From a virus (Duplodnaviria; Heunggongvirae; Uroviricota; Caudoviricetes): DNA of 5,186 nt. The translations under genes were made by a program, and so were the position numbers. Shown in pieces: positions 2,925-4,295 of this stretch. The DNA lies in the IMG/VR virus record IMGVR_UViG_2667527592_000010; one strand, written 5' to 3'. The notes under the pieces are model-generated. The model was not told where the DNA came from, ran no database searches, and saw only the letters and a program-made list of their open reading frames with translations. Within the stretch, counting starts at the first letter, position 1, and each line of letters starts with the position of its first letter.

Positions 2925-3128
2925 ATGAGCAGCTTATTTTTAACCGAAGATGAATTGCTAATATTAACGGGCTGCAAATATGCAAGCCACCAGCGAAAAT
3001 GGTTAATGGAAAACGGGCTTCCGTTCTATACCAATCGTAGTGGCAAACCGATTGTCAGCCGGGATCTATTTACCTGCAATAAAACTTTACCACCACGCGA
3101 GGTAGAGCCCAATTTTGGTGCGATCTGA
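2925..3128 (+). CDS. Small integrase-associated protein (67 aa), DUF4224-like; putative excisionase / recombination directionality factor
   Basis: ORF lies immediately upstream of int and its TGA stop (3126-3128) overlaps the int ATG (3128-3130) as TGATG. The sequence MSSLFLTEDELLILTGCKYASHQRKWLMENGLPF resembles, from memory, the small DUF4224 proteins commonly found next to lambdoid integrases. The Xis function is inferred from position and size, not shown. Confidence 0.65.
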   Translation: MSSLFLTEDELLILTGCKYASHQRKWLMENGLPFYTNRSGKPIVSRDLFTCNKTLPPREVEPNFGAI

Positions 3129-4153
3129 TGGGAAGACGAAGGAAAAATCCTGAACACGAAAAATTACCTCCAAATGTATACCCAAATAAATATAGTTATG
3201 TATGGAAACCAACATCCAGAGAATCTGTCACACTAACCGCCATCAAGGATGGTTTAGCTGCTTTATGGAAAAAGTATGAGGAAACTGTAAATAATCGCGA
3301 TCGTGCAATGACATTCGGTCGCTTGTGGGAAAAATTCCTCGCCAGCGCCTATTACAGTGACCTTAGTCCAAGAACACAAAAAGATTATCTGCAACATCAA
3401 AAAAAGTTGCTTGCCGTATTCGGTAAGGTACCAGCGGATTCCATAAAACCAGAACACATCCGTCGATACATGGACAAAAGAGGGGAGCAGAGTAAAACGC
3501 AAGCCAACCATGAAAAAAGCAGTATGTCCCGTGTTTACAGTTGGGGGTATGAGCGAGGGTACGTGAAGGCTAACCCATGTGCAGGTGTAAGTAAATTCAA
3601 GGCCAAAAACCGCGAACGATATGTAACCGACAAAGAATACCAGGCAGTATTAAGCGTTGCACCTCTTCCTGTTTTTATCGCAATGGAAATTGCCTATCTG
3701 TGTGCAGCGAGGGTTTCCGATGTGTTATCGCTGAAATGGGAACAGATTGGAAACGACGGGATATTCATCCAGCAAGGGAAAACCGGAAAAAAACAGATAA
3801 AAGCATGGAGCCCACGATTACAGGCAGCGATCGAAAAAGCAAAACAGTTACCAAAATCTGCCTATGTGATCAGCAATCAATACGGCAACCGATATATGTA
3901 CAAAGGCTTTAACGAAATGTGGGTAGATGCAAGAAATCGTGCTGGAAAAATTTCAGGTATTTTAACCGACTTCACCTTTCATGATCTGAAGGCGAAAGGA
4001 ATTTCAGACTATGAAGGAAGCAGCCGGGATAAGCAACTTTTCTCTGGTCACAAAACCGAAGGGCAAGTGCTAATCTATGACAGGAAGGTTAAAGTTTCAC
4101 CAACACTTGATGTCCCGTTACCTGAAAATATTCCAAGAAAATATTCCAAGTAA
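3128..4153 (+). CDS. int: Lambda-family tyrosine integrase (341 aa)
   Basis: N-terminus MGRRRKNPEHEKLPPNVYP parallels the lambda Int arm-binding N-terminus (MGRRR…LPPNLY, from memory). Catalytic-region signatures are present: R195 in ARVSDVLSLKW, H285-x-x-K288, H308 and Y317 in GHKTEGQVLIYDRK. It sits adjacent to a tRNA 3' end, with GGTG 8 nt upstream of the ATG and TAA at 4151-4153. Confidence 0.93.
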   Translation: MGRRRKNPEHEKLPPNVYPNKYSYVWKPTSRESVTLTAIKDGLAALWKKYEETVNNRDRAMTFGRLWEKFLASAYYSDLSPRTQKDYLQHQKKLLAVFGKVPADSIKPEHIRRYMDKRGEQSKTQANHEKSSMSRVYSWGYERGYVKANPCAGVSKFKAKNRERYVTDKEYQAVLSVAPLPVFIAMEIAYLCAARVSDVLSLKWEQIGNDGIFIQQGKTGKKQIKAWSPRLQAAIEKAKQLPKSAYVISNQYGNRYMYKGFNEMWVDARNRAGKISGILTDFTFHDLKAKGISDYEGSSRDKQLFSGHKTEGQVLIYDRKVKVSPTLDVPLPENIPRKYSK

Positions 4154-4160
4154 TTCCAAG
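4125..4160 (+). repeat. Tandem direct repeats (13-bp unit AAAATATTCCAAG x2 plus a partial third copy TAATTCCAAG) spanning the int stop codon; candidate integrase arm-type binding sites
   Basis: Units at 4125-4137 and 4138-4150 are identical; 4151-4160 is a 10-bp partial copy with one mismatch. The array overlaps the last codons of int (…NIPRKYSK*) and lies about 45 bp from the tRNA 3' end, where the P' arm of an attL would be expected. Confidence 0.6.
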
Positions 4161-4205
4161 TGTGATTTTTGTCACTGACTTAATGATGTGTAAGTGATTG
4201 AATTT

Positions 4206-4295
4206 TGGCGGAGAGAGGGGGATTTGAACCCCCGGTGGAGTTGCCCCCACTCCGGTTTTCGAGACCGGTCCGTTCAGCCGCTCCGGCATCTCTCC
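4206..4295 (-). tRNA. serU: tRNA-Ser, anticodon CGA (type II tRNA with long variable arm), intact with encoded CCA
   Basis: Reverse complement of 4206..4295 reads GGAGAGATGCCGGAGCGGCTGAACGGACCGGTCTCGAAAACCGGAGTGGGGGCAACTCCACCGGGGGTTCAAATCCCCCTCTCTCCGCCA. It has a 7-bp acceptor stem, anticodon loop CTCGAAA, a 6-bp variable stem (GUGGGG/CUCCAC with one G-U pair), T-arm GGGGG-TTCAAAT-CCCCC, discriminator G and CCA. Confidence 0.95.

Follow-up and report, generated by a model that had tools for sequence, protein, structure and literature searches.

Organization of the prophage end at serU

The stretch of DNA analyzed here (the window, 5,186 nucleotides) covers the integrase-proximal end of a lambdoid prophage together with the flanking chromosomal DNA, and corresponds to the serU-mtfA locus of Escherichia coli (table 1). 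In K-12, the site is empty and the gene order is yodB-serU-mtfA. DNA of the integrase gene (int) occurs in about one-fifth of the complete E. coli genomes (1148 of 5426).

Table 1. Features of the window, with the positions of the integrase active-site codons
Feature	Position	Strand	Remarks
Exonuclease, 823 residues	395-2866	+	C-terminal Rv2179c-like 3'-5' exonuclease domain
DUF4224 excisionase-like gene, 67 residues	2925-3128	+	Pfam PF13986
int, 341-residue lambda-type tyrosine integrase	3128-4153	+	Uninterrupted ORF; arm-binding, core-binding and catalytic domains
Cys192	3701-3703	+	Three residues upstream of R195; Thr in Arg-type relatives
R195 (Arg-I, AGG 3710-3712) and D198 (GAT 3719-3721), box I	3710-3721	+	Aligned to lambda R212 and D215 (phmmer, hhalign)
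K218, Lys of the catalytic beta-hairpin	3779-3781	+	Equivalent of lambda K235 (phmmer, hhalign)
H285-D-L-K288, box II (H-x-x-R) with Lys at Arg-II	3980-3991	+	K288 codon AAG, 3989-3991
H308 (His-III, CAC 4049-4051) and Y317 (nucleophile, TAT 4076-4078)	4049-4078	+	Aligned to lambda H333 and Y342 (MAFFT, hhalign)
Asp318	4079-4081	+	Adjoins the catalytic Tyr
WATTCCAAG, three in tandem, candidate arm-type (P'-like) Int sites	4129-4137, 4142-4150, 4152-4160	+	Overlap the int stop codon
att core, 62 bp	4206-4267		Second copy at the other end of the ~41.6-kb AR_0089 prophage (60/62 identical)
tRNA-Ser(CGA), serU, hybrid with phage-derived 3' part	4206-4295	-	ARAGORN
mtfA	from 4350	+

The first gene of the prophage end encodes a protein annotated as "exonuclease VIII". 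Its middle region is long, acidic, and Gln-rich, and the Rv2179c-like domain, of the 3'-5' exoribonuclease kind, covers residues 642-813. The RecE equivalog matches this protein weakly and partially (283 bits against a cut-off of 1269). In ST64B, Sb30 consists of the exonuclease domain alone (190 residues).

The stop codon of the DUF4224 gene overlaps the start of int by one base (TGATG, 3125-3130), which suggests translational coupling of the two genes. The DUF4224 protein matches the PHROG excisionase families (E 3e-21) and is homologous to the annotated excisionases of the phages ST64B, ZF40, and mEp390. The version of this protein in the prophages Sp4 and Sp14 has been considered "probably non-functional" as an excisionase (Asadulghani et al., PMC2669165). 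Genes of the DUF4224 type are conserved next to int in ST64B, ZF40, mEp390, and BUCT708.

In the genome of AR_0089, where int is identical to that of the window, the distal copy of the att core is located 41.6 kb away, beside yodB/zinT. The duplicated core by which site-specific integration is recognized is therefore present, as seen both from this repeat and from the hybrid tRNA compared with the empty K-12 site. The prophage of AR_0089 also carries four tRNA genes (Ile, Lys, Thr, and Gly), clustered downstream of the Q antiterminator gene (L012 16270-16579), and its early region includes a 2.8-kb gene with a SEC-C domain.

In order to follow the parts of the tRNA, the tRNA of the window, the empty attB of K-12, the distal att copy, and the attP regions of ST64B and the Citrobacter phage Chris1 were aligned. 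Beside int, both of these phages have a segment of ~78 bp that is homologous to positions 4190-4267 of the window and includes the 3' portion of tRNA-Ser as far as the anticodon stem. No homology to the serU core was seen in ZF40 and mEp390, which thus probably have other integration sites. The distal copy is like K-12 both in its 3' flank and in the A and T of the variable-arm stem. The tRNA of the window has a phage-like 3' flank and the phage-type bases G (4237) and C (4248), so that a compensatory G-C pair replaces A-U. Since both positions are of the phage type, against A and T in K-12 and in the distal copy, the crossover would lie within 4249-4267 (anticodon stem-loop). The tRNA beside int is thus half host and half phage. 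Such a hybrid is the expected product of Int-mediated recombination between attP and attB and represents the footprint of site-specific integration. The displaced 3' half of the native serU survives at the far end of the prophage. Through the changed pair of the variable arm (4237 and 4248), lysogens express a slightly different tRNA-Ser(CGA).

At the 3' end of int there is a perfect 13-bp tandem duplication (4124-4149, GAAAATATTCCAA twice), followed by a third partial copy up to 4160, and these give rise to the three WATTCCAAG motifs, where 0.12 would be expected in the window by chance. The 50-kb locus of AR_0089 contains five matches, all within ~150 bp of the two att cores. The distal two (AR_0089 L012 42329-42337 and 42393-42401, one of them inverted) are located within ~110 bp of the distal core. 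By analogy with the P'1-P'3 sites of lambda, the repeats are probably arm-type binding sites of Int. The conserved C-terminal end of the protein (...KYSK) may partly reflect a constraint that the repeat imposes at the DNA level.

The same repeats bear on an annotation of this gene. In two genomes, RefSeq/PGAP flags the identical or orthologous integrase gene as a "frameshifted" pseudogene (AR_0089 L012 945-1995 and O157 ECP19-198 L005 3501-4548). The flagged feature extends 25 nt beyond the stop at 4153, to a TGA at 4176-4178, which corresponds to the frame with a single copy of the 13-bp repeat. The flag was rejected as a sign of real disruption: the ORF is intact, thousands of sequences have the same 341 codons and ...KYSK ending, and homologues with as little as 62% identity retain them. 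It looks like an annotation artefact arising from variation in repeat number.

Lysine in the Arg-II position of a lambda-type integrase

The integrase is a member of the tyrosine recombinase/phage integrase superfamily according to PF00589 (44.7 bits, cut-off 27.1, E 1.7e-11). It also contains the Pfam domains PF22022 and PF14659 and matches PHROG 1 "integrase" (E 6e-54). NCBIfam gave only weak, sub-threshold Xer matches and no specific family name, and none of the Pfam arm-domain models matched below E 0.01. The order of arm-binding, core-binding, and catalytic domains is nevertheless seen in the alignment with lambda Int, in which residues 1-313/317 pair with 1-338/342 of lambda, including the MGRRR...LPPN.Y segment (phmmer and hhalign). 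Structures of lambda Int in the PDB were retrieved by phmmer at E 1e-12 over integrase residues 1-313.

The AF2 model of the protein (mean pLDDT 86.2) has full-length lambda Int (1z1b_A) as its best PDB match in Foldseek (E 6.6e-15, TM 0.63, 343 aligned columns), and the top matches include lambda Int, Tn1549 Int, XerA/XerD, IntI, and Cre. As modelled, the catalytic domain is predicted to have the fold of the superfamily. K288 falls within a helix of residues 285-294, with a mean pLDDT of ~90 in its 10-residue block. Residues 312-318 (4061-4081), which bear Tyr317, have pLDDT <50, and the remaining catalytic domain is confident. In this respect it recalls the C-terminal segment of lambda Int, which carries the Tyr and is mobile.

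The earlier note on this DNA had placed a Lys where tyrosine recombinases carry the second catalytic Arg, and this placement holds. Bases 3980-3991 read CAT GAT CTG AAG, which in the int ORF gives H285-D286-L287-K288, as (3989-3128)/3+1 = 288. Three methods agree on the column. In phmmer against the lambda Int chains of the PDB (1z1b and others, E 1e-12), "ftfHdlKakg" stands opposite "PTFHELRSLS", and K288 shares its column with R311. A MAFFT alignment that included lambda Int and three homologues from phages again sets K288 opposite R311. In hhalign, lambda Int was compared with a family profile of 54 sequences (99.2% probability), and here too K288 falls on R311, and Y317 on Y342. H285 pairs with lambda H308.

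A misalignment, in which the true Arg-II would be elsewhere in box II, has a negligible probability, and nothing was found in its favor. Apart from the agreement of the methods, the spacing is that of lambda, both from His to Lys (three residues) and from His-III to Tyr (nine in both proteins), and there is no Arg between H285 and R301. In addition, the 38 Arg-type representatives among the distant relatives retain the motif FHD[LI]RAK, with Arg in exactly the column of K288. These relatives bridge both forms through an otherwise identical motif, and the column is thus unambiguous.

In the integrase, therefore, the Tyr nucleophile, Arg-I, Asp-I, the beta-hairpin Lys, His-II, and His-III of the superfamily are all found, and the canonical Arg-II is replaced by Lys. 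This replacement does not exclude the protein from the superfamily, as Lys is a documented minority state of the position and supports catalysis in Cre and TopIB. In ~12,000 family members, the position is Arg in 99.1% and Lys in 0.5% (Gibb et al. 2010, PMC2943603).

Descent of the lysine and probable activity of the enzyme

Two sets of relatives were used. The close set consists of the top 120 homologues in the database; they come from Escherichia, Salmonella, Klebsiella, Citrobacter, Dickeya, Pectobacterium, and Sodalis, among others. Lys occupies the 288 column in all 120 (55-100% identity), or in 121/121 with the query. R195, K218, H285, and Y317 are also invariant in these 121 sequences, and H308 is present in 120 of them. 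The distant set was drawn from 1.84 billion cluster representatives, which were searched exhaustively; this gave 119 full-length relatives, and the query and lambda Int completed the set. Among the 118 with Lys or Arg in the column, 80 have Lys (32-60% identity to the query) and 38 have Arg. R195 is invariant in the distant set as well, and so is K218, in all 121 + 121 aligned sequences.

In the NJ tree rooted on lambda Int, Arg is the ancestral state and only two state changes are required. The Lys-type sequences form approximately a single clade beside Arg-type sisters, the largest pure-Lys clade containing 71 clusters. Most members of this clade belong to enterobacteria or to phages of these bacteria (ST64B, ZF40, mEp390, and Sp14/CP-933U of O157). 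Among phage genomes, Lys is conserved and its codon varies: it is AAG in ST64B, ZF40, a Klebsiella phage, and BUCT708, and AAA in mEp390, Evi, and Chris1. Against its O157 orthologue, the integrase has dN 0.013, dS 0.278, and dN/dS 0.045, and this is the only usable ratio, since dS is saturated against all other homologues (nearly so for Evi, dS ~3). The invariant Lys, the variation of its codon, and the low dN/dS indicate an old substitution under purifying selection and not a recent inactivation. Of the two explanations offered by the earlier note, the lineage-specific variant of the active site is thus borne out by a deep clade whose close members invariably have Lys.

The other explanation was an impaired integrase and a prophage unable to excise. 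To this question, the relatives with the same Lys are the most informative. The integrase of prophage Sp14 of E. coli O157:H7 Sakai (ECs_2773; Sp14 is equivalent to CP-933U of EDL933) is 97% identical to that of the window, with an identical FTFHDLKAKG and residues 121-341 almost unchanged. Circular Sp14 DNA was detected after mitomycin C by PCR across attP, and its site-specific origin from attL and attR was confirmed by sequencing (Asadulghani et al. 2009, PMC2669165). In the same study, these circles were much scarcer than those of other prophages and were seen only after mitomycin C, and the authors linked the induction of Sp14 to regional replication driven by the neighbouring Sp15. ST64B, with an HDLK integrase of 59% identity, excises, as its attP was detected by qPCR; the chromosomal integrase IntA also acts on the att sites of ST64B, and therefore excision cannot be assigned cleanly to the Lys-type Int (PMC12455584). 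The Pectobacterium phage ZF40 (HDLK) was obtained from an induced lysogen, and the lambdoid coliphage mEp390 (HDLK), which has an annotated attP, was isolated as a phage. The motif FHDLKAKG is common to the integrases of ST64B, ZF40, mEp390, and Sp14.

Escherichia phage vB_EcoS-689R5, with a 100% identical Int, was also considered as an excising phage and was rejected. Its record has the host flanks serU, mtfA, and asnT and, according to the associated preprint, is a prophage predicted by PHASTER and not an isolate.

Substitutions of the same kind have been characterized in other enzymes. [quoted passage not shown] 2010; PMC2943603). Of two natural recombinases with Lys at Arg-II in a 2026 study, Pal_Y-Int_1 achieved integration in 18.7% of the plasmid-receiving cells and Pal_Y-Int_2 failed in the same assay (PMC12884075).

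A damaging K288, with an integrase dead or nearly so and the prophage locked in the chromosome, is on this evidence extremely improbable. The near-universal Arg of the family, the single transition that separates AAG from AGG (correctly pointed out before), the scarcity of circular Sp14 in Sakai, and the pseudogene mark in two genomes would all agree with it. However, a Lys shared by 120 close homologues and 80 divergent clusters, encoded by either codon and accompanied by a dN/dS of 0.045, is unlike a recent damaging mutation. Other elements whose integrases have this Lys are known to excise or were isolated as phages, the R-to-K mutants of Cre and TopIB keep activity, and the pseudogene flag affects no more than the final few codons of an ORF whose ending is conserved among homologues. 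Homologues of demonstrated activity that carry Lys had been named beforehand as evidence against impairment, and Sp14, ST64B, ZF40, and mEp390 provide them; the suggestion of a trapped prophage is contradicted by these relatives, by the clade-wide Lys, and by purifying selection.

The reading favored here, with a probability of about 0.9, is that the window encodes what is most likely a functional lambda-type integrase of a lambdoid prophage in serU, in which Arg-II changed to Lys long ago and Lys has been kept by selection across a large clade. On this reading, the window's own copy would also be active, for which the published excision of Sp14 and of ST64B is indirect evidence. Homology and the published R-to-K mutants suggest standard chemistry with K288 in place of Arg-II. 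Y317 would attack the scissile phosphate, and R195, K218, H285, and H308 would have the same roles as their counterparts in lambda Int. The ammonium group of K288 would supply the positive charge and the hydrogen bond to a non-bridging oxygen that normally come from Arg-II.

Two further positions differ between the Lys-type and Arg-type integrases. Position 192 tracks position 288: of the 80 Lys-type sequences, 70 have Cys there, and of the 38 Arg-type sequences, 36 have Thr (mutual information 0.79 of 0.91 bits). The pattern holds for the nearest, otherwise similar Arg-type sisters, and Cys192 takes the place of a widely conserved Thr in the "TGxR" motif of box I. At position 318, the Lys clade has Asp or Asn, and hydrophobic residues predominate in the Arg group. 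The build-up of covalent intermediate in Cre R292K points to a ligation defect, and thus Lys may have a kinetic cost unless it is compensated. It is conceivable, though unlikely, that the enzyme works with altered kinetics (slower ligation or a shifted balance of cleavage and ligation) and that Cys192 and Asp/Asn318 have co-evolved in order to compensate for the Lys or to exploit it. The behavior of the Cre mutant, the near-perfect covariation of 192 with 288, and the residues at 318 are in favor of this. On the other hand, the covariation may simply be due to shared ancestry, as only one or two independent origins of Lys were deduced. That K288, Cys192, and Asp/Asn318 would together constitute a distinct, co-evolved design of the active site and not a neutral exchange is rather unlikely. 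If it were true, these integrases should have a cleavage/ligation balance unlike that of the Arg-type, for instance with longer-lived covalent intermediates or a different dependence on accessory factors.

Another Arg could also have taken over the role of Arg-II and left K288 as a bystander. There is a precedent in the CTnDOT integrase IntDOT, in which R285 replaces a missing Arg-I (PMC8138268). A scan for Arg positions enriched in the Lys clade retrieved R319 (Tyr+2), which is Arg in 90% of the Lys-type against 50% of the Arg-type sequences, and R230, present in 82% against 21%. R230 is, however, also found in the nearest Arg-type sisters and hence predates the Lys, and position 319 is Arg or Lys in about three-quarters of the Arg-type sequences too, so it is not specific to the clade. 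An invariant Lys288 is unexpected of a bystander, and Lys at Arg-II supports catalysis in Cre and TopIB. A relocated Arg is for these reasons very improbable.

For annotation, the favored reading of an active Lys-type enzyme means that the absence of the "invariant" Arg-II should not be equated with a dead integrase or a trapped prophage. Beyond E. coli, the Lys-type integrase has relatives across many other enterobacteria. If Lys and its covarying neighbors do alter kinetics, the clade would offer a natural system for the role of Arg-II in ligation, a question of modest and specialist interest.

Comparison with known recombination systems

The protein and the occurrence of Lys at Arg-II are both already known from literature and databases. 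In the literature search, no paper was found that singles out the clade of ST64B, ZF40, mEp390, and Sp14 as Lys-type, searches with box II motif strings gave nothing relevant, and the paper on the classification of tyrosine recombinases does not mention Lys at Arg-II. The integrase is of the Sp14/CP-933U type, within the ST64B/ZF40/mEp390 group of lambda-type integrases.

Cre R292K, TopIB R223K, and Pal_Y-Int_1 resemble K288 in having Lys at the Arg-II position with retained recombination or relaxation activity. In the Cre and TopIB mutants, Lys is a single change introduced into an Arg-type enzyme and is accompanied by a ligation defect, whereas in the integrase of the window Lys is the evolved wild-type state.

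Sp14 shares with the window the integration site in serU and the gene order exonuclease, DUF4224 gene, int, serU, and mtfA. Its integrase differs by a one-residue deletion near the N-terminus and nine substitutions. The remaining parts of the prophages also differ, as the AR_0089 type has HK97-like head genes and Sp14 has espJ/tccP cargo and an IS.

The integrases of the Salmonella phage ST64B (Sb28), ZF40 (gp02), and mEp390 (gp27) are 48-59% identical to that of the window. They have the same three-domain layout, the H-D-L-K box II, and a YDRK/YNRK Tyr region, and in all three phages a DUF4224-type excisionase is adjacent to int, as in the window.

Lambda Int has the same fold and domain order, and Arg-I, Asp, Lys, His-II, His-III, and Tyr align between the two proteins. 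Lambda has its P' arm sites where the window has the tandem repeats beside int, the repeats at both ends of the AR_0089 prophage resemble the layout of the P' and P arm sites, and the excisionase gene is upstream in both. The two integrases are only 20-25% identical, however; that of the window has Lys in place of R311 and Cys in place of the Thr in the "TGxR" box I motif. The element of the window also targets a tRNA gene and not the attB of lambda, and its excisionase family (DUF4224) is unrelated to that of lambda.
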